This document shows positions 1,826 to 43,499 of a stretch of 64,000 nt of DNA, one piece after another. The position numbers were made by a program, and so were the translations under genes. A model generated the notes under the pieces. It did not search any database, was not told the DNA's origin, and worked only from the letters and a program-made list of their open reading frames with translations. The stretch spans positions 62,001 to 126,000 of the forward strand of contig NIVC01001483.1 in NCBI GenBank assembly GCA_002269645.1, written 5' to 3'. Numbering within the stretch: the stretch's first letter is position 1; each line of letters starts with the position of its first letter. The DNA comes from Macrostomum lignano. Taxonomy: Eukaryota.

Positions 1826-4800
1826 TCACACCAGGAAATCATGTTCCATAAGCTCCGTTGCCGACTTTCTCTGATTACGGTTTTTGAAGGTACAGAATTT
1901 GTAAAATTCAGAGAGCTCAGCTGAGCAGCTTGTCGGTAGAGCAGGAGCGCCTTCATTTATCTTTTTTCCAATTCCAAACATGCTTTTTATGTCGTCGAAC
2001 GGTCTGATACCAGAGGCCATTTGGAAAACCGAGCAACCAAACGCCCATATGTCTGACCCTTTGCTGTACAGCGCAGAACGATTAATAGGATCGTCGGGAG
2101 CTATGAGTTCTGGCGACATGAAGGCTAACGTGCCCTTGGGCGTCGCAGAATTGTCATTGGCATGGCTGACTAAATTATCAAGTTTGATTGCCAGGCCGAA
2201 TCCAATCAGTTTAACTTTCTTGGTCTCAGAAAGTATTAATATGTTGCTGCAGTTGATATTTCTGTGGATCACTGGCTCATCCAGATTATGAATGTATTTT
2301 AGAGCACTGCAGATCTACGAATAGGAATAGTAGGAGTAACACGAAACTGTTGAATATAAAGTGAAATTAATAGGAAAAAGCAGAAAAACAATAATCTACC
2401 CAAGCACCTACAATTGAAACATCCAACTTACCTGCTTGCTAAACTTTCGAATGTACCTTTCGGCAAGCGGCTTCTTATCAATATAAGTCTCCAAAGTGAC
2501 ACCCTCCAGAAGTTCCATGAAGACAACACATGTCGCATGATCCTTCTCAGCGATGTGCAAGAATTTGACAATGTTATCATGTCGCAATCGGCACAGGTTC
2601 CTATCGCTCGTTATCGCGTTGATACTGCTTGCATTGTTTGGCTGATCGCCCTGCTGCACTTGCAGTTTCAGAGTTTTCGTAGCGCACTTGATTTGTTTGT
2701 CTGTAAGCACTTCGTGAATATCTGCGCAGCCAGCTCCTTCTCCACTAAGAAGACGAATATTTTCCCAGTCGCACAGAATTGGTGGGCTGTTAGAAAATGG
2801 TCAATGGTTTGAATGGTAAGCGGTGATGCTTCTTACTGAAAATTTTACTGGCTACATATCTAGACAGGATTATACTGGTACTATTATAATTGGATTCACT
2901 GTAGTATACTTAAAAACCAGCAATGATCATAAAGCACTCACTCAATCGTTAAAGCTTGCTACGTTTCTTTGCTTCATATACTTGTAACAGACTGTTTTAA
3001 AAGGCTGCTTTCGAACATTTAAATGCAGCTAAATTTCTTAATCTAGCAGAAAATAGGCGCTGAGCATGAGATGATCTCTACGACTCTCGAAGAGATATTT
3101 TCCTTACTGAATTATAACCTTAATATATGATTCATTTATTTATGTTAATATTATGATTTTAGTTTCAGCAGTTCATAAACTCTGCCCGATGCAGAGTTCT
3201 AGCTTCAATTTTTTATTCTCAGTGTACGAGTATACAACAACAGGACGTATTCCCTCCAGTTAAAGTTTCTTTGCCAATTCCTGCTTACCACGCCGGATTA
3301 TTGTGTCAGATTATTAAAGAGAATACGGTACTCGATGCTACAAGTACGAGCGTATTATGGAATTTTAAAACTGTACCTTTCAAAAAGAGCCAAAAACTTG
3401 TGCCCAAGAAGGTCCCCCGCCGACTTCCTGTCCTTTGGCTCTCGAGCGGTGCAGCAGTCATAGAAAGCTCGCAGCTCTGTTGAGCAGCCATTCGGGAGTC
3501 TCGGGGCGCCGTTCTTTTGCAGCTGCTCAGGAATATTGTATCTGTTGCCGCATTCGGAAAAAGGCAGCTCGCCCGAGGCCATCTGGTAGACTGAGCAGCC
3601 GAACGCCCAAATGTCCGACGATTTGCTGTAGTGTGGATTGCTCGAATCATCTTTACCCCCCAGCAGCTCTGGTGCCATGAATGGCATAGTGCCTTTGGGT
3701 TCCGGATTGGAAGCAGAGATGTGGCTTACTGACTGCTCAAGCTTGATTGAGAGGCCAAAATCAACCAGTTTAATTCGCGTTTTGTCAGCGAGAACAACAA
3801 TATTTCTGCAGTTGATGTCTCTGTGGATCAGGGGTGGCTCTTGGCTGTGAATGTACGCCAGAGCGCTGCAGATCTGAGAAATCGTTCAGAGAGTGAGCTG
3901 CGGCATGCCAATGAGTCGTTAACATTATTTACTTACAGTATTATAAAATTATAGGATAACGGTCTGACCTGTGTGCTGAACAGCCCGATGGTCTCTTCAT
4001 CCAGTTTCGATGACTTAGTAATAAATGTATCCAAGGAGCAGCCATCAAGAAGCTCCATGAACAAGACAACTGTCGCTGGCTCTGGCTGACAAATGTACAG
4101 ATATTTGACAATGTTGTCATGCTGCAGTTCGCATAGGTTTTTCTCGGCATTGAGAGATCTGTCAATTTTTTTACGCACTTCGGCTGGCTCATCTGCATTG
4201 AGCTGCATTGGCAGTGCAATAGTTTTTGTAGCACATCTGATGCCAATGTCGGTCAGCACCTCGTGAACGGTACCAGAGGCACCTCGGCCAAGAGTGCGGA
4301 TTTTGTTCCAGTCGTTATCAAACAGGTGGCTGCCCGACCTAAGATTTGGTGAATTTTTATTCGCTTCATGTTCAATTTTCAAAGTTTTTTTTGTTCAGCA
4401 TTTTCAAAACCAGTTTACTGACAGCTCATTCAAGTCGAATGGACCCCATGGGCAGTAAAATGGCTATCTGCTCATTTTTGTGTAGTATGATATTTGAATA
4501 GGATGAAAATATTATCTTTAAAACAAAATTATTGAAACCAAGGGTAAATATTATGTAGTGTTTTGCTGTCACCTGTCACAGTCGTCGCAAAGGAAGTCAC
4601 AAATTCAAATTCACAGTCTATATTATTTTTGCATCGGCTATACCTCATATTCAAACAGTGACTCACCTCGAGCGAGTGCGGCCAGCCGGATTTGTTTCTC
4701 TATGATCCGCCTGACTTACTCGTAGCTCTTGAACTTCCTTCAGCAAAATATTCATCACTTTGGAATGACCTTCGTCGGCAGCGCGTTTCGCTGCTCTCAG

Positions 4801-4947
4801 ACACATCGCGCTTTTATCTACTTCGATCTTTTTGACAAGATACTTTACCACTTCCAAGTTACCATCGGCTGCTGCGGATTCTAAGAAATGCGAGTCAGTG
4901 TTTGTACTTGCAGTAGCACCTGCATTAGCACCATCCGTTTCGCTCAT
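1826..4947 (-). CDS. Spliced gene, copy A: ankyrin-like exon + STE/MAP3K-like Ser/Thr kinase + pseudokinase (~663 aa)
   Basis: Exons 4947-4667, 4338-3969, 3873-3377, 2786-2432 and 2314-1826 have GT-AG ends and join in frame (phases 2,0,2,0). Kinase 1 has GRGASG, CATK, HRD, DFG, APE and SDIWAFG. Kinase 2 has a degenerate Gly loop, HRN and GFG. Further 5' exons are possible. Confidence 0.75.
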
Positions 4948-5318
4948 TTTCAGCGTTGTTTTCTTTAGATGATCGTGCTCAGGCCTCGCTCGTTCAAACG
5001 TCTTATTCCTAAAATTGAACACGAACTTGAACTTAAATCCAATTTCTCACTTGGATTTGCTATATCGATTGGTTTTTTAGTCGAATGTCCGCTTTTTTGT
5101 TAAACGTATGCAAAGTTATTGAAAATATGCACATATACCTATTTGTGCATATACTCCGACAGGCGGGCCACATGCAAGCCTGAAGCCCAATTATCCCACC
5201 CTCGGGTCCTTTGAAACTTCACAATAGCAATCTAGCCCGCTCATTAAGATTTGCCTCTTTTCAACTGTCTTCTTTCCCAGCTTTTTCCCATTTCCCATTT
5301 CACTTCCTCAGCTCTCCT

Positions 5319-6736
5319 ACTACTAAGGGATTCCGTATCCGTCGATTTTGGAGGTGAGGTGGGTGTCAAAATTGGCTGGCGCCCCCCAAGAACCAATCGC
5401 CTGCGGTGATCGATACGCGTATCGATAACGGCGCCCGCGCGCCGCAGGCGCCAAGCGCCGTGCAGGCGCCCCGATATGTACACCCTCCCGATATGTACAC
5501 CCTCCCGATATGTACACCCTCCCGATATGTACACCCTCCCGATATGTACACCCTCCCGATATGTACACCCTCCCGATATGTACACCCTCCCGATATGTAT
5601 GCGCCCCGATATAAGTAGTCATCGATATGAACTTATTGATTTTGTAGTCATCGATACGTACCCTCGCAGGCACCGTCTACCTCTCTCTACCTCTTACCCT
5701 ACCCCTCACCTGGCCTCTCTCCCTCTCTCACCCACATCTCAACTAGAGGAATCGAACCTAGGCCATACCCATACAAAAGCAAATACGGTAACCACTAGGC
5801 CAATACACGGTGGGTATAGGGATCAAGAAGAGGTTTTTAACCCTGTAGAGTGAGTGCGCCGAGGCAGGGGCAGAGAGCAGCCACCCCGTCCACCCGGCTT
5901 GTGTGGCCAGCAGCAGGAAGTGGGGGCAGAGTGGGACAGAGGCAGCCCCGGCATGTTGCAGCAGGAGGCATGGACGGCGACAGAGTGTATATGTGTGTAT
6001 ATAAGTCACCCACCCCCGCGGAGAAGAACCGTACAGAGGACAGAGAGCTCCCCCTGTTGCAGGCCAGGGACAGAGAGGCAGACAGGGTATGCGGGTTAAA
6101 GGGGCGTGCGAACAGTCAGGGAGCCACGCGAGGATAGAGTGGAGGAGCAGAGATGTGTATGGGCAGAGAGCCGGCCACGCGAGGGCGGTGTGAGGGAACA
6201 GAGAGAAATATGGAGCAGGACAGGAGGGAGATGCCCCTGCCTCCGCGGACTCACTGTACAGGGCTGCGTCAGCATCGGGGTTAAAACCTCTTCTCGCTTC
6301 CTATACCAAACCGTGTAGTGGCCTAGTGGCTACCATATTCGCTTTTGTATGGGTATGGCCTAGGTTCGATTCCTCTAGTTGAGATGTGGGTGAGAGAGGG
6401 AGAGAGGCCAGGTGAGGGGTAGGGTGAGAGGTAGAGAGAGGTAGACGGTTCCTGCGGGGTACGTATCACTGACTACAAAATCAATACGTACATATATATG
6501 ACTACATATCGGGGCGCATACATATCGGGAGGGTATACATATCGGGGCGCATACATATCGGGAGGGTGTACATATCGGGGCGCCTGCGGCGCGCGGGCGC
6601 CGATATCGATACGCGTATCGATCACCGCAGGCGATCGGTTCTTGGGGGAGGCGCCAGCCAATGAGAGGCGAGGAGCTAGCTAGGGTTGACACCCACCTCA
6701 CCCTCAAAATCGACAGATACGGAATCCCTTAGTAGT
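5319..6736. mobile_element. Non-autonomous mini-Polinton (fold-back element, ~460-525 bp TIRs)
   Basis: Termini ACTACTAAGGG...CCCTTAGTAGT. 6-bp TSD TCTCCT at 5313-5318 and 6737-6742. Arms ~5319-5845 and ~6277-6736 are inverted repeats around a ~430-bp spacer. No credible ORF. Confidence 0.85.
5470..5588 (+). repeat. 17-nt tandem repeat (CCCGATATGTACACCCT) x7 in the left TIR of the mini-element
   Basis: Direct count. The right arm (~6505-6580) has fewer, variant copies. Confidence 0.9.
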
Positions 6737-8999: not shown

Positions 9000-11165
9000 G
9001 CATTATTATACATTAGCATCACTACAATTATCATACCTGCTCAATCGTGCTTAAATCAGTAGCTACAAAGGTTTACACTGTTACCGATCCCTATCTTCTT
9101 ACCTATACTAAATATCTAATCATTCTGTACGAGTATACTAAATTCTCCGAGTGAAACTCAATAAGCCTAGTTTGAAAGCTTACTGTCAAGTCAGTTTACG
9201 TTGACGCTGATAAGGAATCCGTTTGCAAAGCATCTGTAGTATGTAATATTTGACTGACAACTTCGCAAACAATCAAAACAAGCAAGCAAACAAGAAAATA
9301 TTTTACCTTGCAATTATGATTGTAATTGCCTTGCAACTGTGATTGCGAGTTTCTATGAAGCAGACAGGGACTACTCAAACATTTTTTTGATGTTTGAGCA
9401 GACATCAAAATTCCGCAAGCAAAGTTCGGCAGGAAAAGTTCGGCAGGAAAAGTGATAGCAACATAATTTATACCGTTTCTAAAAGCTAATATGCATGTAT
9501 GTCCCGGCATGGGCCCCGACCCCCTCTATAGGGTTTAGAAATTAAGCCAGAACAATTAGAAATGGGCATAGGCTGAGCCTATAATAGTGCAAGCAGCGCA
9601 TGGCAAAGCTACAGCAGCTCCCAACAATTTCTGGCAGAGATCAAAGGCGAGACGGCAATTTGACCTGGACGGTTGACAGGCGGTGACGGCCGGCCGGAGA
9701 ATTCTTAATGAGCCCGGCGCGGAGGCCGCTCCTGGAGAGGAGCTGCGGGCAGGCCCGGGACCGACGCCCAACCCCGACTGGCGTGGCAACCGAGGGGTGG
9801 ATGCGTGGGCCGGCCCGCACAGAAGGACAGTGAACTGAGCTCCCCCCAGATGCTCTAACGCAACCAGAGCAATCCGCTAAGTCTAACCATCTAGCCCTCG
9901 CCCCCGTAGTTATGGGCATGTCTAGTGCTGTTTAATTACATGCGCTGTGCTGTGTAAACCTCGCCGTCGTTAGGAAAGCGGTTCCCCACCTCATCGGCGG
10001 GAGGGGATGAAATTGTAGAGCTCATAAAAATATACGCAAACTGCAAGCCCAGAGAGACACTTAATTTCTCCACTTATTGGCCTCTCGGCTTCTGGGCTGG
10101 TTTTAGATTTAGAAATGTATTGCAATAATATTAAAGAAAAGCAACTCCCGGCCCGGTCTTGTCATTTGCTCCACCGCTGTTGGATGGCAGAAGATAGTTT
10201 CGGTGCTTGAACATTAAAAAACCTTGCGCAATACCTTCACAGTTTCTCCGCCTCCCCAACCATAGCAGAGGAAGAGAAGGGTTAGGGGTAGAGGGTGAAT
10301 TGAAGTGCAATCAGGATGCTGTGCCAGAATAATTCATTTGGGATTCGTATTCAAGATGTTCTCAAGTTTTCTTGCAACTGCAATTTAAGATGCCAAGAGG
10401 AGTAACTAGTTTTATAGCTAGAGTAGCTACTAGAGTTTAACTAAAATTGCAACTAGTTTTAAGATGCCTGCGAGCACGGGATACAGTTGAATCTGCATAC
10501 ATGTACGCGGCATTTCTTGCCCGTGCATGCTATTGAGCTCATGTTGATTTAAAAATGGAACGAAACAACCCCAAAGAATTATTGCAGATCAGTCGGGTAT
10601 TTCAATTAACTTGGATTATAATTAGCTTCCAGTGAGAATTAGTTGGTGCACTTACAAATTACGCATGGACATGTAAAAGCCCTACTATTTAATGGAATAA
10701 ATTATATGGAATCATTTTTAGGTTTTGGGTTTTAACATTTTGGTAATAATTATGCTTTGATGCTTTGATGACAACGACAAAAATAAACATTCAATGACTA
10801 TTTGTCATTGGGTCAAGATCAGACCCTTGGCTGGGCCTTTGGCTTTGGTGATCTAGTAGTTCTTGTGACGTTGTCATTTACAGTGCAGTTGGGTAATTTA
10901 ATGTACGCCAGAGCGCTGCAGATCTGAGAAATGGTTCAGAAAGTGAGCTGCGGCATGCCAATGAGTCGTTAACATTATTTGCTTACAGTATTATAAAATT
11001 ATACAATACCGGTCTGACCTGTGTGCTGAACAGCCCGATGGTCTCTTCATCCAGTTTCGATGACTTAGTAATAAATGTATCCAAGGAGCAGCCATCAAGA
11101 AGCTCCATGAACAAGACAACTGTGGCTGGCTCTGGCTGATAAATGTACAGATACTTGACAATGTT

Positions 11166-11785
11166 ACTACGTATCGTGCAGTTAGAGCCGGGTTTTGGAG
11201 GTGAGGTGGGTGTCAGAGCCAATGCAAATTCAGCGCCTATCTAAATACATTAGACCGATTCTAATTGGTCCAGAGTCATTATCTGAGATATGCATGTAAC
11301 TCTCATGTAAATCTAATTATACATGTAAATCAGTGTACATTCCCAATTGTGTCGTACAGAAGCGACGACCAGTACAATATAGTACGCATAATTAGCGCTC
11401 CGCAGTTGTTGTACGCAGAAACGCGCGCGCCCCCAGCCCCGCACAATGCAGCATTGGTGTAGCGCAGAATTAACTGTCCATATTAACTGTCCATATACCA
11501 AAAATTGGCAGAATTAACGCGCGCCGACCCACCCCATAACTGTCCATATTATTACTTGTCCATATTTACTGTCCATCCCAAAAATTGGCAGAATTGTAGC
11601 GTCCGCCCACCCCATAGCTGTTCGATCAAACCCAAACTTCGTGTACGCACAGAATTGTAGCGCCCACCCATCCAAGAAAATATTCTGTCGCCTCCCACAA
11701 TTAATTGGCGGCCCCACGCGGAGGCATGATGAGTCAGTCAGCCGCTGTAAATCGCCGCTATCCACCCCTCTGCTGCAGCCTGTTA
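11166..11785. repeat. Left TIR of the Polinton-like element
   Basis: Reverse complement of ~20785-21294, with many small indels and an extra ~80-bp internal duplication. Confidence 0.85.
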
Positions 11786-11939
11786 TATCCACTCACACCA
11801 TACTCCATCCCTCTAGAATTCTGTCCTCCGTAGCCACTCCGGGGCAATTACGTCATACCCAACCCCTCTCCCAAATAAGTTTTCAAAAGGCGTATATATA
11901 TTTACACAAAAAGCCGGCCGAGCTTTGATACGTATATAT

Positions 11940-12569
11940 TTATTTAGCATACACAATTGGGTGACGACCCAAAATGTTTGAATAATAGCGAGCAGGAGCA
12001 TTTTGCAAACAGTTTACAATCAAGTATGAGTAGGGGTCGCGAGTAGCATCCTCATACGTTTTGACAAAACTTTTTGGATTAGTGGGGACCAGCTGCCTTG
12101 CAATATGAGACACTGTGCTGGCATCCCGTACATTGCGGAATAAAACAAGGTAGTTCGAATTGAGCGACTGAGTTCGGTGCTCCTTACCCTTTGCAAACAG
12201 GTTTTGCACAAGATACCAAAGTCGGAACCCCACGTGGGAGACTTTGCGCGTGAAAAAAGTTGTAAAAGCGCCACTCTTTTCCATGGCATGCATTTGGTCG
12301 TCGACGACAAGCAGAATATTTGGTTCAGGGACATATTGTTCAGGATCACATGTACACGAACGAAAATTTACAGGGTACGGCAATTCAAACAGTTCAGGAT
12401 CCGGATAGTGGCCAAACCAGTCTACGCGAATCGGCTTCGGATCTTGAAAAAATTCTTGTCTCAATAGGTTTTTCACAAGTGTGGTCTTGCCGCTTTGAGC
12501 CACCCCAGCAAAAATTGCAGACGTTTTGGGGGCAAATTTTAAAGAGTCGGGGTCTATTGTTTGATACAT
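11940..12569 (-). CDS. A32/FtsK-HerA-type genome packaging ATPase
   Basis: Walker A GVAQSGKT, Walker B LLVVDD, and QNLF..RTQSLNSNYLVLFRN motif typical of Polinton ATPases. ATG at 12569. Confidence 0.85.
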   Translation of the reverse strand: MYQTIDPDSLKFAPKTSAIFAGVAQSGKTTLVKNLLRQEFFQDPKPIRVDWFGHYPDPELFELPYPVNFRSCTCDPEQYVPEPNILLVVDDQMHAMEKSGAFTTFFTRKVSHVGFRLWYLVQNLFAKGKEHRTQSLNSNYLVLFRNVRDASTVSHIARQLVPTNPKSFVKTYEDATRDPYSYLIVNCLQNAPARYYSNILGRHPIVYAK

Positions 12570-12592
12570 TTTGATAGGCCGCCCAATCATAT

Positions 12593-13042
12593 TTATGGAT
12601 GATGCTGCTTTATTTGTAGACAGTGATTCTGCACCATCAAGTCGTTCTCGTAAAGATTTGTGCTATAACAGTCACGCAATATTTTTTCAATTGACAGACC
12701 CTCCAAAAAGTGTTTTTCAGCCACAAATATTACATGAGCCCCGCAGGTCACACTCAGCGGATGCTGTACAGGATGCCGATTCATGGCCACCTCCACAGGG
12801 ACATACTTTGCGATCCACAACTTTAATAAATCTGGCACAGGATCGATACACAAGGGGTCAAAAAATGTCACGCTCTCATCGGCATGAAGACAAATTAAAG
12901 CCCAGTGAGTGCCCGGTAGATTGCCAGTGTCAAAGTTAATCACGTATGCAGCAGGATAAACAGGCTGCGGAATCCTGTCAACGGGTGTTACTCGAACAGG
13001 GACAGGTAGTATTAGACGTTCTAATATATCTAGACTATTCAT
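12593..13042 (-). CDS. Adenain-like capsid maturation cysteine protease
   Basis: GTHW, FFDP and Q..TCG catalytic motifs. Confidence 0.85.
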   Translation of the reverse strand: MNSLDILERLILPVPVRVTPVDRIPQPVYPAAYVINFDTGNLPGTHWALICLHADESVTFFDPLCIDPVPDLLKLWIAKYVPVEVAMNRHPVQHPLSVTCGAHVIFVAEKHFLEGLSIEKILRDCYSTNLYENDLMVQNHCLQIKQHHP

Positions 13043-13081
13043 ATCGGCATGAATATGGCCGTTATTTGAGAATTTTTGTTT

Positions 13082-14363
13082 CTACACGTAGTCTAGAATA
13101 ACCTGACGACCGCGAGTGATTTGCACAGTATTGTCAAAGTAGCCAAACACCAACACGTTGATTCCTGCGGCCAAGGCAGCAGAAAACTTTATTTGTAGCG
13201 TCAGATTCCCTCGCTCGCGAGGCATGCTATGCCCGCCCAGCTCCATGTCGGGCATGAGATTCCAGGCGAAGAAGCAGTAGCCAGCTCCATAGTCGGAATA
13301 TGATACGTCAATATCCAGGTCCCGATTCATCTTTCCTAGGCTTTTTAGTAGCATGGCATACTCGCGAGCATAGTTATGAACACCGAATCGAGGAGTAAAC
13401 GGTTGTCCACACAGACTGACACCGTCCTTATACAGTGCCACACTGTCGGCACCAAATGGCTCAAAATTAAACGGGTTATGTGTAGCCACACCGTTGTACG
13501 CGCCGCTGTTTACCATGCCAACAACCACTAGTTTAGGCTTTTGTTCAGGAAATATATTGTTGATTGACATGTTCCGAACACCGCCAGCCACTGAAGTATT
13601 GTGCACAACAAGTCGCTCAATCGGATAGATTGCATTCTGTTTGCCTAGTTGTTCTTCAATCTCCAATGCCAATTGGGGGTTTGCCTTGACGCGGCGCACA
13701 TGTAGTTTGGCACTCTCGAGTACTAGCCGCGCATCAACCCCGTCCGCGTGGTTTTCCAGAACGAAGCCGGAATTGTGCATGGTCAGCGTAATTACCATAT
13801 CAGTGTATGGCAGTAGCATTCGGTCGTTGGTAACAAAAAAGTCTAAACTAAGAGGTCCATAAAGGTGAAAGGTGCGTGAGTTTGCTGCCATCGCCTTCGG
13901 GCTACAAGCCAGGATTTCCAACCACAGCCATTTGACCTCCAGCGTCCTTTGCGTAGCCCATCATTCTCAGTTGATTGGTTTTTGAATCGTGTCCGTAATT
14001 CAAACACGTGCGAATATAGGCCTTGTAAGCGTGGTTGTTATTGCTCGACTCTACGTGTGTCCCGTTGATTGTCAACGTGACGTTTTTAAACATGCTTTCA
14101 AGGACGTAATTGACCGGCGCAACATTCGAATCAGCAGCAAGATTTGTACCATTAGACTGCTTAACGCGGGCCTTAATCTCGAGGTCAATGTCGTTAAGAT
14201 CGATAAACGTCTCACCACCAACAATCCTAAATTCGACCACGCTGGCATTTTCAACACTGGCAACAGGGTGAACTTCTTCAGTGGTGGCGCTAATTGCAGC
14301 AATTTGGTGTGCGCGAGGAGCAAATAGCTCGAATTCCGACTTTGTACACAGGCACTCAGTCAT
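13082..14363 (-). CDS. Polinton major capsid protein (double jelly-roll), frameshifted near 13900
   Basis: The 153-aa and 279-aa ORFs read as consecutive parts of the Polinton MCP pattern as recalled (C.KSE..LF, EF.I.G, PVN..L.S.F, AY....LNY, GMV...AYNG...NPFNF). Confidence 0.8.
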
Positions 14364-14405
14364 TTTTCTTTCAACAGCGGCTTAGTGTGGTGCTCTAATA
14401 GACAA

Positions 14406-14774
14406 TCAGTTATTGGCACGGGCTTTTTTATTTATAGAGTCGAAAATATCAGAATGCTGCAGTCTTTTTCTCGTTTTTTTGTTAGTCATCTTTCTTCGTC
14501 TTTGTCTGCCGCTACCACGTTGTGCGACTGTGTCCTTGAAAGCATCTTTAGCTGCCTGGACAGAGTTACGCAATGCTGCTTCTTTCAAGTTCCCGCCTTG
14601 ATCGAGTGTGTCGTTAACTGTTGTAGCTAGGGCTCGTGTTCCGTGGCGAAGAATATTTTTGCCAAAACTCTTTAAAATTGGCAGGGCAAATCGGGCAATG
14701 CTGCCAAACAGGCCGTTGCCGCGCTGTGCACCGGAAAATACCGGTAAAGCTCCTCCGATCAAGATTGAAGGCAT
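14406..14774 (-). CDS. Small basic virion/core-like protein with an amphipathic segment
   Basis: LIGG, QRGNG and QRGSG putative protease sites; amphipathic LFGSIARFALPILKSFGK; Arg/Lys-rich tail; lies between the penton and MCP genes. Confidence 0.6.
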   Translation of the reverse strand: MPSILIGGALPVFSGAQRGNGLFGSIARFALPILKSFGKNILRHGTRALATTVNDTLDQGGNLKEAALRNSVQAAKDAFKDTVAQRGSGRQRRRKMTNKKTRKRLQHSDIFDSINKKARANN

Positions 14775-14818
14775 ATTGTCGATCAGTTGCTACCTTTTAT
14801 TCGTGAAAACTTCTTTAT

Positions 14819-15972
14819 TTATAGCTTAATTTCACGAATGTTGATCGATAAAACAGTTTTACCTCGAAGAATCCGATCCATTAACTTGCCCATATCGTCA
14901 CAGATTTGCACCTCAATGGTTTTGAATGGGTGTTTCACCAACGGTAAGTAGGATGGATTGACAAACTCGTAGTATCTCGTTCGCCGTATACCTTTTCATT
15001 CAAAGGAATTGCCCCAAGCAGGGGGACTTTGACGTCTCCAACAATGGCAGAGTCGACAATATTTGAATAGATGTACATAGTTTGTACACCATTTGTTAAA
15101 TCGATTGGTCGTTTAGCGGTCTTTGGAGTTTCATTGAAAACATCTTCGCGAAAGCCGAGAATGGCAGCAAGCTCTCCAATGTCGAATAAAATGTTTTCAA
15201 TGGGTTTGTACTCACACCGGTTCAGAAAAGGGTTGTAGCTGAATGCATCCACTCTCGTCGCTGGACTTATTGGGAGCTTTGAAACGACGCTCCAAAGCGC
15301 TCCATTAACATAATTTAAGAGCTCGTCAGGCGTGCGGTAGAATCCTTTAGCAATCCGCAGTGACGTTCTAGAAGGCCAGACACTCTTTTCAAACGTTAGA
15401 GTCATGGGACTCTCTATGGAGGAGGAGGACTCCAATTCTATAGCGAATACTAACGAATTTCTTGGGTGTAATAAAAAAGTCGTTTCTTCGATATTTGATT
15501 TATTTCCAGCGTCGTCAACCTTTTTAAACATGCTGCACACATTACTGGACAGCCTAATGTTCGCACCATACCATGATTTGTTCACAATTGAAATTTGGCC
15601 TTCCTGTGAGCGCTCAATGCAAATCATCGCATTATCGTCTTGCTCATATTTTAGAGCGGCGATGATTGCATCAACCACTTCGTTGGCTGTTGATAGCCCC
15701 GCGGCGAGAGAAACCGACGCAAACTGTTTATACGTGGAGGCGGGTTTTTCTCTCACCTCAATGTCAATCACTTCATCCTCGGGAGCGTTGGTCAGGACAT
15801 CAACCATTCGATTATCGGGGACGGTTTTGAATTCTTTACAAAAGTAGATCCGTTCGATGCAGACTTCATGATTCGGAAAGTGGAGGGTGTCGGGCAAATT
15901 AATGCTATAATGTGCCGAATTATTCTCAGGATAGTGCTCAACGCACGCATTGCTAGGTAGGAATAGATGCAT
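14819..15972 (-). CDS. Minor capsid protein (penton-like), frameshifted near 14975
   Basis: LPSN...YPEN and YIYSNIV....VGD...PLL motifs. The adjacent frame continues YYEFVNPSYLP...IEVQICDDMG to a TAA at 14821-14819. Confidence 0.75.
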
Positions 15973-16006
15973 TGTAATATACTACACGTTTCGAGTGTAT
16001 GTGTGT

Positions 16007-17073
16007 TCATCCTTGTCTTATATTTATAACTTCCTCAACTGGTACAAATGCATTGAACGACTCGGGATAGCCGCGCCAACTAACGAAATGATGAGCGACA
16101 CCATTGATGATGACATTGCGACGCAGAATTTTGTCTATAACAAAGCGATCCGGTCGAACCGTCTTTGAAAGTTCATTATAGTAGAATCGACCCTCGATTT
16201 GTTCTCCAGATAGGTCGGAAATGCGATAAAAATGAGGCGGTCCCGGGCATACTTGAGACACAACGTAAACTTCTTCGCTGTACAAATCGTATGCTTCCTT
16301 GTCAAAGGCTCGACGAGATTTTGAAATTCTGACAAAGTCCCCCTTTTGGTAAACTGGTTCATCATATTCAGGATCCTTGTAGAGCTTTTCCCACAATTCT
16401 TTTTGATTGTGCAGACCGACACTCGAAGGTTTCATATCAATAGTAGAGTGTACTGTGTTGTTGTAACTTTTAACCAATATTGGCAAATAGTCGATCCAAC
16501 GCCACGTGTTTTTATGCTCAAAGTAGCGAGCTAAACGTTTTCGGAGAGTCCTAATCAGCCTTTCAGCCATATTTGCCTTGTATACAGAGTTTGTACTGTA
16601 CATTTTGATATTATGGCTTTCAGTAAGTTCTGCATGCGATTGTTATAAAACTCGGTACCTCGATCAACGTGTAGATATAAAGGCTTAATGGGGAAGTCTT
16701 TGATCATGCTTTCAAAAGCCTTTGGAGTGTCGCTTTTCAATTTTATTGACTGACAAAAAGCCAATTTACTAAGCACGTCAATTGCAACTAGAATATATCG
16801 ATGACCATCATTCCATTGTTCGTATCGTGACATGTCCATCAAATCCTCTTGCACAGTTTCCATGAAGCCTCCCGACATTACTTTTCCGGTTCGGAATTTT
16901 CTTTTAACCCTCTTGTGCCGGGTGTAGCTCGATTGGGTCTTCAGCCATTCGTCGGTTTGGCGTCTCGTCAGGGAGGGGACCAGCCGTTTGGCCTCCTGAT
17001 ATACACGGGCAGCATTTGTAAAAGCGGCGTCCCCCTGTTCGTACACTCTCCGAAGAGCGGTTTTCACCCTCAT
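16007..17073 (-). CDS. Retroviral-type DDE integrase with C-terminal chromodomain-like region, frameshifted near 16610
   Basis: QEDLMD, IDVLSK, HVDRGTEF and AERLIRT motifs; C-terminal IDKIL...FVSWRGYPESFNAFVP. Confidence 0.85.
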
Positions 17074-17210
17074 TCGCAACTAGATTCGATGCACAGCATG
17101 AGTAATTACACTTGAACTCCACAGACGGTTTGTCTGAGCAAAGCTTTGAAGTTACAGCTGCGGCACCCATGATCCAAAAACAGATTATAAATCATGAAAA
17201 TGATTTCTAT

Positions 17211-17885
17211 TTATAGTTTTTTTAACGTCTCGTATTTCACTGCTGGTTTCTGCCGCCTCTTTGGTTCGCGAAGTTGGTATGAAGCATGCCTGTAGGCATC
17301 GCTGCCACGATCTTCATATTTTTTTATTTCATTCAGGCCACTGGCTTGGTCTTTGTGGAAGTCGCTGTAGAAATCATTAGTTCCAATTGCTTGCTCGACT
17401 AAAAAATCGTCTCGATCCGGATCCGTGCCGACTTCTTTTTTCACACTGACTTCTTCTTGTTGGCGTCGTCCTAGTAGAGCTTTTGCAATATCTGCCTTTT
17501 CGGCCAGGGCCCAAAAAGCGGTACTATACTTTGGGCTTGGACGGTCGCGCCTTTCATTCGATGTAATCTCCTTCAATAGATCGAAAATATTGCTTCCTGG
17601 CCAGGTTTTTCCATCAAATACAATTTCCCACGACTTGTTGTACTCCAAATTTGGGTATCTTTCTGTCAGCATGTCCCAAACACGTTGTTGTCGTTCAGGA
17701 AAACGATTACTCTTCTTTTGCTTGATCTGACTTAGTTTATTTTGGAGTTGAGTGTTGTATTCAATGAGTTTTTCATATTCTGTTTTGGATGCAATTTCTT
17801 GGGGTGCGCCTTGACTTAGTCTATTAAATTCTTCTTCTGGTACAACAACGTATTTATTCATTTTAGCGACCAAGTAGTCCGCCAA
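17211..17885 (-). CDS. Uncharacterised Polinton-type protein (224 aa)
   Basis: Open ORF in the element. WEIVFDG...PGSNIFDLL resembles a recurrent Polinton protein (recalled, not searched). Confidence 0.55.
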   Translation of the reverse strand: MADYLVAKMNKYVVVPEEEFNRLSQGAPQEIASKTEYEKLIEYNTQLQNKLSQIKQKKSNRFPERQQRVWDMLTERYPNLEYNKSWEIVFDGKTWPGSNIFDLLKEITSNERRDRPSPKYSTAFWALAEKADIAKALLGRRQQEEVSVKKEVGTDPDRDDFLVEQAIGTNDFYSDFHKDQASGLNEIKKYEDRGSDAYRHASYQLREPKRRQKPAVKYETLKKL

Positions 17886-18219
17886 ACAGGCTTGATATTA
17901 GCGGTGCAGCAACAGATGCGAGGATGGGTAGAAAACCACCGACTTGAGGATTCGAGAGAAGCATATTCTTCTTCCTATTTATAGACAATTTTGTGTCTGC
18001 CAATTCACGCAATGATCTTCTGTATCGCTTTAATCGCAGATACTGTTTCGGAGAAAGATCGATATTTCCCCGGAGCACGTTGTGACTCAATTCACAGAGA
18101 CAATGAATCAGTTCCTTGCCTGCACCTCGAATAATGGCCCGCCGAAGAGCGGGACGGGCTTTGGCGAGCTCTGCGAGCTCGCCGCGACAAGAACATAGTC
18201 TGGAGATTCCGTTTGTCAT
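17863..18219 (-). CDS. Small basic Polinton protein with C-terminal amphipathic peptide
   Basis: LIHCLCELSHNVLRGN..L motif; basic body; QVGG followed by FLPILASVAAPLISSLFGGLLGR. ATG at 18219. Confidence 0.6.
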   Translation of the reverse strand: MTNGISRLCSCRGELAELAKARPALRRAIIRGAGKELIHCLCELSHNVLRGNIDLSPKQYLRLKRYRRSLRELADTKLSINRKKNMLLSNPQVGGFLPILASVAAPLISSLFGGLLGR

Positions 18220-18359
18220 TTTGTTTAGCAAAAAGATGTTTGTTGCAGTGCACTGCAATTTATGCACAATATATTTATAGACAATTTCATAGCAGCTTGT
18301 ACGTACATACAAATTCGGTACAGTGGTAAAGCAGTAAAGTTACGCAACAGCTACATGGA

Positions 18360-18686
18360 TTAGACATGCAAAACGCTAGTCACATGATCGTACATTTTAC
18401 AGAGCTCTTTAAAGTTTCGTATTCCAAGGAAAACAAGGCGGCCATTCTTTCCGCATAATAAACATTTAGCATTGCGAAATGGAGACTTTATTACTATTCC
18501 ATTGAAAACTTCACACTCCCACTTCACCCAGTGGGACCCGGAGTATGCAATTTGGAAAAAGTTTGGCCATCTGTCTACTTCAGCGCGGTAAGTACTAGTG
18601 GTAACAACAACAGAAATTGGTTTACATTGAGGAAAAAGACGCAAAACTTGGTTGACTGAGCGACAACCGAATACAATTGCAGACAA
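18360..18686 (-). CDS. Hypothetical protein (108 aa) in the Polinton-like element
   Basis: Same strand as all other element genes; CLLC motif; no recognisable family. Confidence 0.4.
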   Translation of the reverse strand: MSAIVFGCRSVNQVLRLFPQCKPISVVVTTSTYRAEVDRWPNFFQIAYSGSHWVKWECEVFNGIVIKSPFRNAKCLLCGKNGRLVFLGIRNFKELCKMYDHVTSVLHV

Positions 18687-18817
18687 AGAACGCTGAAAAA
18701 AGTTGATTGTACATTTTCATATTCGCAAATTGATAAGAGCTCTTGGTCTGCGAAATGTCCGTGCGCTCGCCCAGTCCAAGTCAGGCATGCGGCTCCATTT
18801 CGCGCAAAACACTCGGT

Positions 18818-19570
18818 TCACACACTCGACGTTCTGCAAGTAGATTTTTCGACAGTTTTTACTTTCGCATCCTTCTTGGGGGCTTTCGACCGCTTCTTTG
18901 ATTCGTTGGCTGCTACTAGTTTCGATTGATGCTGTCGCTTTCTGGCCTGATTTTTAGGCACCTTTGGCTGCTTCTCCTTGACAAGCTTTGGTGGTTTCTT
19001 TGCTTTCTTGCTTACTTTCTTGGCGCCTACCTTGATTTTTGGAGGTGGCGTCCAATAGCAACGATCGAATGCCTGTTTGGCTTCTTCGACAAACTGTAGC
19101 TGTTGAATTTTTGGCATTGCGGTCAAAACAGCGTCTCGAATCACGGCCGTGTCGAGAGTAAACAGAATCCTGTAGTAGCCGCTCTTGGTTTTGTAATCCT
19201 CTACAGGCAGTCCGTTTTGGTCGTACATTTTAAAGTCGTGAGCCAGCCCAAACGCTGCACTGTCACCTCCAAACGCTGGGTTATAGCCCAGCAGAGCTAG
19301 ACTTTCGCTGGAAAGGTGCTCCGCCACAGTGTTGAAAGTGTAGGGTATGCAGCTTTCAATGTGTTTTTGTGCAATGATGATGAATTCGCGACCTTCGTTG
19401 TCAGTACGCACGCCCTTGACGATCAAAACAGGGACCGCATTGGCCAAGTAGAGAGGTCCCTGTTCGTCATATTCAATGTCAAACGTTTCAACCCCGTTGA
19501 AGCTCGGACCTCGCGGTTTGAGTGCCAGCAGCTCTCGCTTGATGCAGTTGAAGTCTTGCACTGTCTCCAT
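18818..19570 (-). CDS. Hypothetical protein (250 aa) with Lys-rich C-terminal tail
   Basis: Long ORF with a real ATG, ~55-60 nt downstream of a TATATAAG box. Confidence 0.6.
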   Translation of the reverse strand: METVQDFNCIKRELLALKPRGPSFNGVETFDIEYDEQGPLYLANAVPVLIVKGVRTDNEGREFIIIAQKHIESCIPYTFNTVAEHLSSESLALLGYNPAFGGDSAAFGLAHDFKMYDQNGLPVEDYKTKSGYYRILFTLDTAVIRDAVLTAMPKIQQLQFVEEAKQAFDRCYWTPPPKIKVGAKKVSKKAKKPPKLVKEKQPKVPKNQARKRQHQSKLVAANESKKRSKAPKKDAKVKTVEKSTCRTSSV

Positions 19571-19579
19571 GTCTCTTGT

Positions 19580-20530
19580 CTGTTTAGAAAAATTTGCAGG
19601 TACGGGCGCTTGCAGATGCTCCGGGCTGGTGCTTATATACCCGAGAGTCTCAATAAGTTTTTGTTTTAATTACACGATAACGAGCTTTTTACAGAGTTGT
19701 CGTTATCGAGGATTCCGGAAAAAATGAACCTTTTGTTCCTATTTTCGGGTGCTGGCGTTGGAGGTGTGCTGAAATCCTTGCTCCAAGTTGCTGGTAGTTC
19801 AAGCTTTGGCGGCCTGTTCCTCTTGTGCTTTGGCAGCCAAAAATTCCAAATCTTTTGTTGCTCCTCCCACGACGGATTATACAGATCTTGATGGTTCCGA
19901 AAACGTATTTTTTGGCGATGCTCTTTACTTAGTATCGGAGCCAGTAATCTCTCCATTCGTGCTAAATCAGCTTTGAATCTCATTTTGTCCCGTAGTTGCT
20001 CATTTATCCTGGCTGCTGCGTAGTCTTGGCTGTCGTAGGGGCCTTGATCAATTTCCTCGACCTTGGCATTGAAGGTGACTAATCGCTCGGAAATCGGTTT
20101 GCTGTGGCAAATGCACAACCAGTCAGCAGATTTTTTCAAGGCCTCATATTCGTCTTTTTCCTCGTTCGATAATAGGGGGTAGGCTCCGGAAATCCAGCTC
20201 ATTTCTTGTCAAGCACTTGCTGCGTTGTTCGCACTAGTGGTGGGGATGTTATTCGAGCTTGAAAAACTGCCGAGAATCCGAGAAAAATTTGCAGGTACGG
20301 GTGCTTGGTGCCCAGGGTTGGTGCTTATATACCCGAGAGTCTCAATAAGTTTTTGTTTTAATTACATGTTAACGAGCTTTTTACGGTGTTGTCGTTATCG
20401 AGGATTCCAGAAAAAATGAGACTTGTACCTATTTTCGGTGCTGGCGTTGAAGGCCTTGCTCCTTGCTCAAAGTTGTTGGCAGTTCATGCTTTGATGGTCT
20501 GATCCTCTTGTGCTTTGGCAACCAAAAATT
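19580..20530. repeat. Duplicated ~260-280-bp cassette (19580-19860 and 20275-20530) containing a TATA box
   Basis: Near-identical blocks such as GGTGCTTATATACCCGAGAGTCTCAATAAG occur twice, each upstream of a minus-strand ORF. Confidence 0.85.
19666..20202 (-). CDS. Hypothetical protein (178 aa)
   Basis: ATG-initiated, downstream of the second TATATAAG copy. Confidence 0.55.
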   Translation of the reverse strand: MSWISGAYPLLSNEEKDEYEALKKSADWLCICHSKPISERLVTFNAKVEEIDQGPYDSQDYAAARINEQLRDKMRFKADLARMERLLAPILSKEHRQKIRFRNHQDLYNPSWEEQQKIWNFWLPKHKRNRPPKLELPATWSKDFSTPPTPAPENRNKRFIFSGILDNDNSVKSSLSCN

Positions 20531-20784
20531 GCTTGTCAAACACTGCGTTTTCCACATGATTGGGTTGTTAATTGAACTTGGTGAATTTAGATAAACGGCC
20601 GAGAATCCAAATTTTCTTATTTATATTTGCTGTCTGAACAAAATTGGTTTGGCATTTACGAGAATATTTCATGCATAGAAGTTTGTGTTTTCAGACCTTG
20701 ATGACGTGTCTGGCTATAAAGTTAGCATTGTGGCTCGACCGGGTTGTTGCGTAACACTGCTGCTGGTAGCTATAGCGGCCAGCG

Positions 20785-21294
20785 CAGGGCAGAGGGGTGG
20801 ACAGCTGCGATTTACTGGCTGACTGACTCATCATGCCTCCGCGCGGGGCCGCCAATTAATTGTGAGAGGCGACAGAATATTTTCTTGGATGGGTGGGCGC
20901 TACAATTCTGTGCGTACACGAAGTTTGGGTTTGATCGAACAGCTATGGGGTGGGCGGACGCTACAATTCTGCCAATTTTTGGTATATGGACAGTAAATAT
21001 GGACAGTTAATTCTGCGTACACCAATGCTGCATTGTGTGGGGATGGGGGTACGCGCGTTTCTGCGTACAACAACTGCGGAGCGCTAATTATGCGTACTAT
21101 ATTTTACTGGTCGCTTCTGTACACAGTGTACACTGATTACATGTATAGATTTTACATGAGAGTATAAATGTCTCACATAATGACTCTGGACCAATTAGTA
21201 ATCGGTCTAATGTATTTAGATAGGCGTTGAATTTGCATTGGCTCTGACACCCACCTCACCTCCAAAATCAACAACAATCTGCGCATTACGTAGT
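20785..21294. repeat. Right TIR of the Polinton-like element
   Basis: Inverted match to 11166-11785. Confidence 0.85.
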
Positions 21295-23204
21295 AATGTT
21301 GTCATGCTGCAGTTCGCACAGGTTTTTCTCGGCCTCGAGACATTTGTCAATTTTTTACGCACTTCGGCTTGCTCATTGAGCTGCATTATATTGGCAGTGC
21401 AATAGTTTTTGTAGCACATCTGATGCCAACGTCGGTCAGCACCTCGTGAACGGTACCACAGGCATCTCGGCCAAGAGTGCGGATTTTGATCCAGTCGTTA
21501 TCAAACAGGAGGCTGTCCGACCTAAGATTTGGTGAATTTTTATTCGCTTCATGTTTAATTCAAATTTATTCTGTTCAGCATTTTCAAAACCAGTTTACTG
21601 ACAGCTCATTTAAGTCGAATGGACCCCATGGGCAGTAGAAATGGCTATCAGTTCATTTTTGTGGTAGTATGATATTTGAATGGGATGAAAAGATTAGCTT
21701 TAAAACAAAATTATTGAAACCAATGCTAAATATTATGTAGTGTTTTGCTGTCACCTGTCACAGTTTTATGTAAATCTATACTTATTCTCAGCAGTATTGG
21801 GTAATTTAATTTCATCTTACTATTTCTAATCACGATATTTTTTGTTTGTCTAACCGTAAGAAATGTATTTTATTCAAACTGTGAAAATGTAAAATAATGT
21901 TCTTGAAGTCGGACGATTCTAACAATCACTTTAATTTCGTTGTGATGACAGATGAATAAACGAATGCGTTCTTGGCTTGTGGGTGCAAATATAAACGTCA
22001 ATGCGCCTTAATTTATTTCTTTTAATATTTGTATAATCTATATGCAATCAAAGTAATTAACATCTATATTTATGCTCAAAAATGACTAGATCTAGATCTA
22101 CAATTCAATTGAAACTGGATCGACTGAATATGCCAGTATGCCAGTATGCCAGTATGAATATGCTCACTGGACTGGCTATGCCAACCTACACTGTACCACG
22201 TCGCCCATGGAGATCGTTTAAAATACGACAAGAATCTACATCCAGTAAAACAATAGTAGTAAAGTAAGTACGTAAAGTAAGTATCGCAAAAATAGAGAAC
22301 TCACTACTGAAAAAATAATTACTAAATAATAATACAATAATCAAGAACGCCGGATATGTCATAAAAGTGCGGGAATTCAATTGATACATAAAAATCTTTA
22401 CAAAAAGGCGGGTTCCGATCGCACTAACTAACTGAATTTACCGCACTTAGGTTCACCGGATTTTTAACTTTAATTTTAAGGCTTAATTCAAGCGCAATCA
22501 CCATCCACTCCACTCCACCAGCTCGCGCACGACTATCAGAAAATCATATTTGCAATTATACTACTACTATAGTAAGGAAGCACAAAGCACTATACATTGA
22601 TCCTACATTATTCCCATATTAACATTTAAATAAACGATTGTGCTACCGTTACCTAATTAACACATTCATTTTTATTCATATTTGTGATAGTACTGATACC
22701 AGTCCAGTGGCAGTGATAGTCACAATCCAAATATACTAAATCTTAATCCAAAACAAATATATCCGAATATACTAAATTTAGCTTTGGCTGCTAGCTAGCT
22801 ACCCATAGGCCTAGCTACATGTAACTAAATACACTAAATCTCTAAGATCTGTCTTATAATTCTAATTATATTGTCTATAGCTTAGGCCCTTACTGATCTG
22901 TAGGATTATAAATAAAATAAAATAGTATATCATACATACACAATATTAATTTTTTAAATTGGCCTAACTGGCTAACATTACAATTTTGAATTTATATATA
23001 TATTTCATTAGGAGATCATATATTACACCTAGCTGGTTGATTGGTCGACTTGCATTCAGCTTTAGATATGAAATAATATATGTTGCAGGGCATTTTCTTT
23101 TAATAATAATGGTGCATGACCAAGACTGCCACATACCAAGACTGCCATAGCTCTTACTGGCTACTAGAATTGAAGGAGAGCTACCAATCTTCCAGCATTG
23201 CTAT

Positions 23205-42770: not shown

Positions 42771-43224
42771 CTACCCCTAAGTTGCACCACTGTTACCCAA
42801 CAATCTACATGTCCTATTAAGAATGCTATAAATTTCTCTTTACTACTTTCTACACAATCACTTTCAATTTAGCTTTAGTCCTTACCAATTATATTCACTA
42901 TAGAACAAATTTAAGCAAGATAGCTATTATAAACATTATTATATTGATTAAAAACATACAATTTTGTGTTGGGCCTTGTCCCATTTTTACTTAGAAATTA
43001 GATGATAATGACTAATTTGTTTTTTTCTTATTTCTTTTCAGCTTTTAGCATTCAGTTTAATAAATAGTCATAATCATTGAGTATATATGCCTTAACTGGC
43101 CAATCGGCATAACAAGTTTAAGTGAGAAATTGGATTTAAGTTCAAGTTCGTGTTCAATTTTAGGAATAAGACGTTTGAACGAGCGAGGCCTGAGCACGAT
43201 CATCTAAAGAAAACAACGCGGAAA

Positions 43225-43499
43225 ATGAGCGAAACAGACGGTGCTAATGCAGGTGCTACTGCAAGTACAAACACTGACTCGAACTTTTTAGAATCCGCAG
43301 CAGCCGATGGTAACTTGGAAGTGGTACAGTATCTTGTCAAACTGATCAAAGTAGATAAAAGCGCGATGTGTCTGAGAGCAGCGAAACGCGCTGGCGACAA
43401 AGGTCATTTCAAAGTGATGAATTTTTTGCTGAAGGAAGTTCAAGAGCTACGTCAGGCGGATTATAGAGAAACAAATCCGGCTGGCCGCACTCGCTCGAG
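43225..43499 (+). CDS. Ankyrin-like exon
   Basis: AAADGNLEVVQYLV / AGDKGHFKVMNFLL; donor AG|GTGAGT; a possible phase-2 acceptor at 43163. Confidence 0.65.

Follow-up and report, generated by a model that had tools for sequence, protein, structure and literature searches.

A polymerase-less Polinton of Macrostomum lignano as the probable virion-and-integrase half of a bipartite genome

We analysed a 64,000-nucleotide stretch of the Macrostomum lignano genome (GCA_002269645.1, contig NIVC01001483.1, positions 62,001 to 126,000 of the forward strand; hereafter the window), which contains a complete Polinton-type element of 10.1 kb with terminal inverted repeats (TIRs) and a 6-bp target-site duplication (TSD) at positions 11166-21294 (Table 1). 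The initial annotation, made from the sequence alone, had described a Polinton-like endogenous virus with both ends and a TSD, with genes for an ATPase, a protease, a major capsid protein (MCP), a penton and an integrase as well as small open reading frames (ORFs), and with neither a family B DNA polymerase of the protein-primed type (pPolB) nor a helicase; it had proposed either a helper-dependent satellite or a simple deletion derivative. Our analysis bears out the structural part of this description. The TIRs, ~600 bp on the left and ~500 bp on the right, are 88-95% alike, and the element is inserted in a dispersed non-coding repeat of ~1.8 kb. Because the two uninterrupted copies of this repeat in the window each hold a single AATGTT at the corresponding place, the AATGTT duplication that flanks the element is real. 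All genes of the element lie on the minus strand, and five small ORFs are present besides those for the ATPase, protease, MCP, penton and integrase.

The integrase matches the rve domain (PF00665) in Pfam with E-values of 2e-6 for the window piece and 1.7e-9 for a copy of the related family B (see below), and the match of its chromodomain is weak. The ATPase and protease are 30-42% identical to their homologs in canonical Polintons and have the expected motifs in their sequences; the penton is a putative assignment from weak sequence matches to Polinton loci only. The MCP alignment had no sequence match in the PDB, and the assignment was obtained by a fold search instead: a family model (pLDDT 87.6, from a 17-sequence alignment headed by another copy of the same family) matched Vp54 of PBCV-1 in Foldseek with an E-value of 2.5e-17, and its TM-scores to the MCPs of PBCV-1, an iridovirus, Sputnik and mavirus were ~0.6. 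On this predicted structure, the MCP of the window lineage is a double jelly roll (DJR). The composition and position of the basic 122-aa ORF indicate that it likely encodes a virion core protein. The 250-aa ORF had no Atlas match, and its low-confidence model (pLDDT 44) gave no significant fold match, the leads being T7 gp2.5/Enc34 single-stranded DNA (ssDNA)-binding proteins at Z-scores of 2.4-2.5 and viral P31K-like entries at E-values of 0.1 or higher. The ~170-bp stretch beside the left TIR is also present in two of the three copies compared of the polymerase element P' described below and may be a shared 3'-end or packaging signal. In the window copy, the MCP, penton and integrase genes are each split over two frames; six of the ten single-base indels that distinguish it from another copy adjoin the same base, and therefore some of these frame breaks may be assembly errors.

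Table 1. Features of the polymerase-less element and related elements in the window
Feature	Position	Strand	Remark
Left TSD, AATGTT	11160..11165		
Left TIR, begins ACTACGTA	11166..11773	+	nt 8-27 polymorphic, common to P'; nt 28-50 common to P
~170-bp non-coding stretch, last gene to TIR	11780..11947		84% like the corresponding stretch of some P' copies
A32/FtsK-like packaging ATPase, 216 aa	11940..12590	-	Walker A/B motifs seen directly in sequence
Adenain-like maturation protease, 149 aa	12593..13042	-	His/Asp/Gln/Cys catalytic motifs seen directly
Double-jelly-roll MCP	13082..14363	-	Predicted fold; two frames
Basic 122-aa ORF	14406..14774	-	87% aa identity between families A and B
Penton (minor capsid protein)	14819..15972	-	Putative; variable central insert; two frames
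rve integrase with C-terminal chromodomain	16007..17073	-	Two frames
216-aa ORF	17211..17861	-	Weak homologs in canonical Polintons
118-aa ORF	17863..18219	-	Conserved in Polintons
250-aa lineage-specific ORF	18818..19570	-	Non-significant weak lead to T7 gp2.5-like ssDNA-binding proteins
178-aa lineage-specific ORF	19666..20202	-	Matches no known family; partly duplicated at 20281-20530 (86%)
Right TIR	20789..21294	-	
Right TSD, AATGTT	21295..21300		
Dispersed repeat copies	3316-5072; 10900-11165 + 21295-21764; 43100-44792		Second copy interrupted by the element
1.4-kb non-coding element	5319..6736		B/P-type ends ACTACTA; TSD TCTCCT

The lack of a polymerase was confirmed. Pfam detected no pPolB or helicase in 12 ORFs beyond weak P-loop matches on the ATPase, and two pPolB profiles gave no match at E ≤ 1 in the six frames of the element, including 18300-20750, where the initial annotation had considered that polymerase remnants might lie. 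No helicase or primase in cis was found by Pfam in the window ORFs or in the ORFs specific to family B (two ORFs match no family), and SF3 helicases were absent from the Pfam scans of the window ORFs and of the ORFs of the P elements.

The same polymerase-less layout is repeated across the genome. A search with the MCP (best 143 of 382 candidates scored) identified at least 59 places of the window lineage, below which the next identity level falls to 30-35%. The integrase search (best 113 of 1570 candidates scored) revealed the same gap below this group (~35%) among the scored candidates, and no MCP or integrase intermediate between the group and ~35% identity was present among the top candidates scored. 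The lineage comprises two families, A, to which the window element belongs (24 copies examined), and B (21 copies), with median lengths of 10.2 and 10.5 kb and within-family identities of 98.5 and 98.8%, respectively. The assembly holds some regions twice, and the copy counts given here and below are lower bounds that include duplicated regions. TSDs match in 16 of the 19 A copies with both ends (14 distinct) and in 11 of 12 such B copies; the independent insertions of one layout for which the initial annotation had suggested looking are thus present. Over the capsid block, A and B are ~74% identical in nucleotide sequence with identical gene order, and all 45 copies examined share one layout, none matching a reading frame of the P elements. 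Family B has two additional ORFs without a counterpart in A, one of 117 aa and one with a Fic domain (PF02661, E-value 6.6e-14; L130:947-1723). In one A copy (L112-L113, G000:C1313), the left 3.7 kb, containing the ATPase, protease, MCP and core ORF, is found inverted at the right end, an arrangement resembling the coding TIRs described for Pieris polintons (10.1101/2025.02.07.637071).

Comparison of one A copy with one B copy yielded ratios of non-synonymous to synonymous substitution (dN/dS) of 0.036 (MCP), 0.05 (ATPase), 0.098 (integrase) and 0.30 (penton), at dS values of 1.3-2.4 or saturated, and the MCP is unbroken in 12 of the 24 A copies and 14 of the 21 B copies. The capsid genes of A and B are under purifying selection. 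In a rapid tree with 38 MCP sequences, a comparison that the initial annotation had proposed, A and B clustered with four sequences from outside the host (SH-aLRT 99), and three canonical Polintons from the host genome fell elsewhere; the MCPs of A/B are 27-35% alike to those of the host's canonical Polintons. Outside the host, relatives of the MCP and the 250-aa ORF exist at 55-80% identity. Scans of viral contigs with the MCP, the MCP alignment and the 250-aa-ORF alignment detected no relative, a metagenome scan found distant Polinton MCPs only (28-38%), and the five matches of the terminal pattern in IMG/VR were all internal. Because A and B are both multi-copy families with low dN/dS whose MCPs group apart from canonical Polintons, the layout without a polymerase is an old one under selection and not the product of a recent deletion. 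Non-autonomous derivatives are common in transposon families, and the window copy is broken in three genes, which would suit the proposal that the element arose by simple deletion from an autonomous Polinton resident in the genome. However, the uniform layout of the 45 copies, the divergence of two multi-copy families that both lack pPolB and have their own TSDs, the dN/dS values far below 1 and the clustering of the MCP with outside relatives instead of resident canonical families all argue against it. Among the top candidates scored and the shared-end elements read, we found no parent that has these ends and nearly identical genes, and none joining both modules; within this assembly the proposal is refuted, and we consider it highly improbable.

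In the genome search for pPolB, the best 91 of 974 candidates were scored. Canonical Polintons are plentiful in the host (at least 119 pPolB matches) and begin with AGTAGT in all five cases in which the ends were read. Two genome searches, with patterns for the A and B ends, yielded 325 matches versus 110 in the control and 234 versus 25 in the control. Many of the pattern pairs enclose pPolB matches, and fetching such pairs led to two families of polymerase elements, namely P (9.5 kb, ends ACTACTA, TIRs of ~900 bp) and P' (9.6 kb, ends ACTACGTA), which are ~65% alike. Among the 13 P' copies examined, both ends are present together with matching 6-bp TSDs in ten, one of which has an internal truncation; the same is true of five of the eight P copies examined. 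A gene-content census of 44 coding elements with both ends, using profiles over six frames, separated the two groups completely: the pPolB profile matched none of the 31 A/B elements (window copy included) and all 13 P/P' elements, whereas the integrase, ATPase, protease, MCP and penton profiles each matched all 31 A/B elements and none of the 13 P/P' elements. A profile of another pPolB class found nothing in A/B, but it also missed P and hence has limited power. A polymerase-bearing element with the same termini, for which the initial annotation had suggested looking, exists in the form of P', devoid of capsid and integrase genes.

A search with one polymerase exon, in which all 137 candidates were scored, located 41 P' and 56 P places; these 97 places have only three contigs in common with 75 capsid-segment places, and likewise only three with the 59 MCP places, the nearest pair being 47.7 kb apart. 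The lengths of A and P' add up to ~19.7 kb, a length usual for Polintons, and both pairs, A + P' and B + P, amount to 19.7-20 kb. Six oversized elements with shared ends, five with A-type and one with B/P-type ends, were read, and none of the six joins both modules of the lineage. Their contents are P' with added insertions, DNA of the fold-back type, a retroelement or, in the element with B/P-type ends, a canonical Polinton nested inside with ends and a TSD of its own. As candidate full-length parents, they were ruled out by these contents; five of them contain no capsid genes of this lineage. We also observed a decayed element (L360-L361, G000:C234) in which a pPolB of the P class (36-46%) lies close to remnants of protease and penton and which may be a relative in one piece. 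Family P contains a 177-aa ORF (L285:6885-7415) with a PC4-like ssDNA-binding lead (Atlas 0.86, Pfam E-value 0.19), a 43% homolog of which is found in some P' copies only; the left arm of P' varies.

The termini connect the polymerase elements with the capsid elements in a specific manner. All 36 A and 21 P' ends begin with ACTACGTA, and all 27 B and 11 P ends begin with ACTACTA (ends were found with a pattern admitting both end types and de-duplicated by flank); A and P' have the same 31-nt ends. Within each of the families A, B and P, almost no variation occurs at nt 1-7 and 28-60, but nt 9-25 vary (top-letter frequency 0.62-0.71). Over nt 8-27, A and P' have a mean best-match identity of 0.84-0.86 and B and P one of 0.88-0.93, against 0.45-0.51 in the cross-pair comparisons. 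Exact sub-haplotypes of nt 9-16 and nt 17-27 are common to A and P' (4 and 5, respectively) and to B and P (5 and 2), and none is common across pairs in any of the four cross comparisons. Because this polymorphism is shared between otherwise unrelated elements, it implies repeated exchange, which is most easily explained by joint replication. The nt 8-27 block (e.g. window positions 11173-11192 and 21268-21287) is a hypervariable mosaic with 24 haplotypes among 36 A ends; the left and right blocks of one copy are identical in 11 of 16 A, 8 of 10 P' and 7 of 10 B copies and differ in the window copy. Flip-flop hairpin isomers were considered for this variable block and dropped, as the alleles are, by eye, not reverse complements.

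These features lead us to the view that the window element is probably the virion-and-integrase half of a bipartite Polinton, which forms one split genome with P' by reciprocal complementation. The best reading of all four families is that A + P' and B + P are two co-diverged pairs, whose members would supply polymerase and integrase/capsid functions to each other in trans. Complementary gene sets are found on two DNAs with matching termini, as in a bipartite genome, and the end-matched polymerase elements have no integrase and virion genes, unlike the autonomous helper of a satellite. Because the end-matched polymerase donor is itself non-autonomous, the dependence looks mutual, as between genome segments. 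Of the satellite proposal in the initial annotation, therefore, the borrowing of replication in trans is supported, whereas the autonomous helper is not.

Protein priming is normally origin-specific, as established for phi29 and adenovirus, and the ends of A/B are unlike canonical ends, yet match those of P' and P down to polymorphic alleles. Both points make it quite unlikely that host enzymes or canonical Polintons copy A and B while P and P' only exploit the A/B integrase and capsid, even though canonical pPolB matches occur at hundreds of places in this genome, polB-less Pieris polintons are reported to stay mobile (10.1101/2025.02.07.637071) and Polinton-like viruses (PLVs) in which no replication genes can be detected have been described (PMC10120064, 10.64898/2026.06.19.733378).

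The pPolB genes of P and P' contain the full set of exonuclease and polymerase catalytic motifs, and public gene models labelled M. lignano carry the pPolB motifs in one chain. In both P and P' (L285, L304), three short introns occupy identical positions, inside motifs A, B and C. GT..AG bounds were identified at the motif A and motif B interruptions in 20 of 21 copies each, the exceptions being a script mis-hit at A and a changed donor at B. Three runs from two studies that were guessed to be RNA, and one comparison run, were mapped as contigs on a P' copy; four joints of 69-86 nt were found over the pPolB gene in the guessed-RNA runs and none of these in the comparison run; three of the four are GT..AG introns, and the fourth has other letters between. 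The dN/dS values between the P and P' frames are 0.15-0.21 at a dS of ~2, and the P/P' polymerase looks alive. Between the exonuclease and the palm lies a motif that we take to be that of a Vsr-like nuclease (compare 10.1101/2023.08.22.554363).

The P-type pPolB had no tblastn match in the host's canonical Polintons and represents a separate pPolB class. Together with the 27-35% likeness of the A/B MCPs to canonical ones and the documented swapping of pPolB among Polintons (10.1101/2023.08.22.554363), this would fit two elements of separate origin that came to depend on each other, either because self-replicating, plasmid- or transpoviron-like P/P' elements acquired the termini of a Polinton without polymerase or because the opposite took place. 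Such a mutualism would function in the same way as a split genome, without descent by fission. However, the P-type pPolB has typical Polinton relatives at 36-39%, one labelled Nematostella, the decayed element mentioned above puts a P-class pPolB beside protease and penton remnants, and two end-matched pairs with similar divergence fit the descent of one paired system. A separate origin is therefore unlikely in our opinion. The monopartite loci compared as nearest relatives by MCP carry a pPolB of another class than P.

In a bipartite Polinton, the polymerase of P', with its terminal-protein domain (pPolB carries its terminal protein; PMC11161782), would prime on the shared terminal origin, an ACT-ACG repeat, and copy A and P' by strand displacement. 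The integrase of the A segment would insert both segments; rve integrases make 6-bp TSDs (PMC12220804), and its action on both would explain the TSDs on P', an element without an integrase. Exchange between co-replicating ends would keep the nt 8-27 alleles common within a pair. A would supply the particles, and, in the least supported step, each ~10-kb segment would be packaged in its own small capsid. Packaging singly, packaging together and movement mostly inside the nucleus are all possible modes. The B + P pair, with ends ACTACTA, would have diverged in parallel, and non-coding fold-back and short shared-end elements would ride along like defective genomes. Complementation, episomes and particles are what we infer from these data. 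More tentatively, the whole may be a multipartite double-stranded DNA (dsDNA) virus of the DJR lineage, with replication and virion/integrase segments that are separately packaged and integrated, two co-diverged species, a terminal block marking partners and copy-back defective genomes fossilized in the germ line.

Several observations weigh against the split-genome interpretation. Nucleotides 28-50 of A match P, not P'; the two pairs are therefore not cleanly separated and have exchanged ends. The median identity among P' copies is 94.7% versus 98.5% among A copies. Because dS is near saturation, the equal depth of the two pairs is weak support for co-divergence, and because no monopartite ancestor was found, an origin by fission is unproven. 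Outside the host, no pPolB relative between ~60% and 43% was present among the matches listed. The RNA status of the mapped runs is a guess, no run recorded as RNA being among those listed for P', and the mapping covered P' only. Furthermore, no episome, particle or complementation has been observed, and a single assembly with duplicated regions underlies all results.

Non-coding elements with the same ends accompany the coding families. Fold-back, largely palindromic elements of 6.7-14 kb, mostly with their own TSDs (L286-L294, L300, L340-L342, L352-L353), resemble copy-back defective genomes. The short element in the window with B/P-type ends (Table 1) is related to them and contains imperfect internal inverted repeats and a 17-bp tandem array. 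In a sample partly chosen by size, 13 of the 17 non-coding shared-end elements measured are between 6.5 and 10 kb, and with the same sampling all element classes lie near 9-10.5 kb. Elsewhere in the window, a young long terminal repeat (LTR) retrotransposon with identical 234-bp LTRs and one 1209-aa gag-pol frame occupies 46299-50496, and a cluster of ORFs with ankyrin repeats and a Mab-21/cGAS-like C-terminal domain, possibly innate-immunity genes, occupies 51395-60121.

If the split-genome interpretation is true, an integrating dsDNA virus from the lineage of adenoviruses and virophages has also evolved genome segmentation, a trait familiar from RNA viruses and ssDNA viruses. The interpretation would offer an explanation for polymerase-less Polintons elsewhere, with end-matched partners as the search rule. 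One survey restricted pPolB to integrase-linked genes (10.1101/2023.08.22.554363), and another dropped elements under 10 kb (PMC4028283). Because surveys filter on the linkage of pPolB and integrase, they would overlook a split form or class it as debris. The strong purifying selection on the capsid genes of an element unable to copy itself argues that the virion matters. Since replication and virion functions are naturally separated here in a laboratory animal, particle formation by Polintons and the retention of the capsid for transmission become testable.

Known Polintons carry pPolB and integrase in one genome of 15-20 kb (10.64898/2026.06.19.733378), and their common end motif is 5'-(AGT)2, other end motifs being known (PMC8097293). 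Like Polintons, Mavericks and adintoviruses (Polintoviricetes), A and B have a DJR MCP, a putative penton, an A32-like ATPase, an adenain-like protease, an rve integrase with a chromodomain, TIRs and a 6-bp TSD, and the partner P/P' has an exonuclease-bearing pPolB with all catalytic motifs. Unlike in the Polintons described, however, pPolB and integrase reside on two ~10-kb elements with ends 5'-ACT, and the P/P' pPolB has introns inside its catalytic motifs. Taken alone, A and B possess the integrase, the DJR MCP, the ATPase and protease, the TIRs and the 6-bp TSD of a Polinton and lack pPolB in cis and a length of 15-20 kb; judged by the feature that defines Polintons, pPolB in cis, the element by itself does not qualify, but the pair does. 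We found no bipartite Polinton and no description of the A, B, P or P' families in the literature searched, which excluded subscription papers, Repbase and supplements.

The polB-less polintons of Pieris (10.1101/2025.02.07.637071) are similar in having no polB and apparently still being mobile. They are described as carrying LINE or LTR cargo and having near-identical complete relatives with polB. In M. lignano, by contrast, we found no complete relative, and capsid and integrase genes are absent from the polymerase donor. Tlr1 (PMC11161782, PMC4028283) has integrase and capsid genes without pPolB, as in A/B, but in Tlr1 and most PLVs a helicase or primase in cis, of which none was found in A/B, is reported to replace pPolB. 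Transpovirons, like P/P', are capsid-less replicons riding another virus; those described ride autonomous giant viruses, whereas here neither partner is autonomous. The yeast linear plasmids pGKL1 and pGKL2 have no capsid and do not integrate, each has its own polymerase, and their ends differ. They nevertheless form a protein-primed pair in which one assists the other (PMC13348850), as proposed for A + P'. Bidnaviruses are bipartite, with matching segment termini and a pPolB (PMC8502044, 10.1101/2024.03.25.586562), and thus resemble the present system in having two segments with matching ends and a pPolB of Polinton origin on one of them. However, they are ssDNA viruses with a parvovirus-like capsid and NS1 and without an integrase, whereas the pairs in M. 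lignano have a DJR virion module and both segments are integrated.

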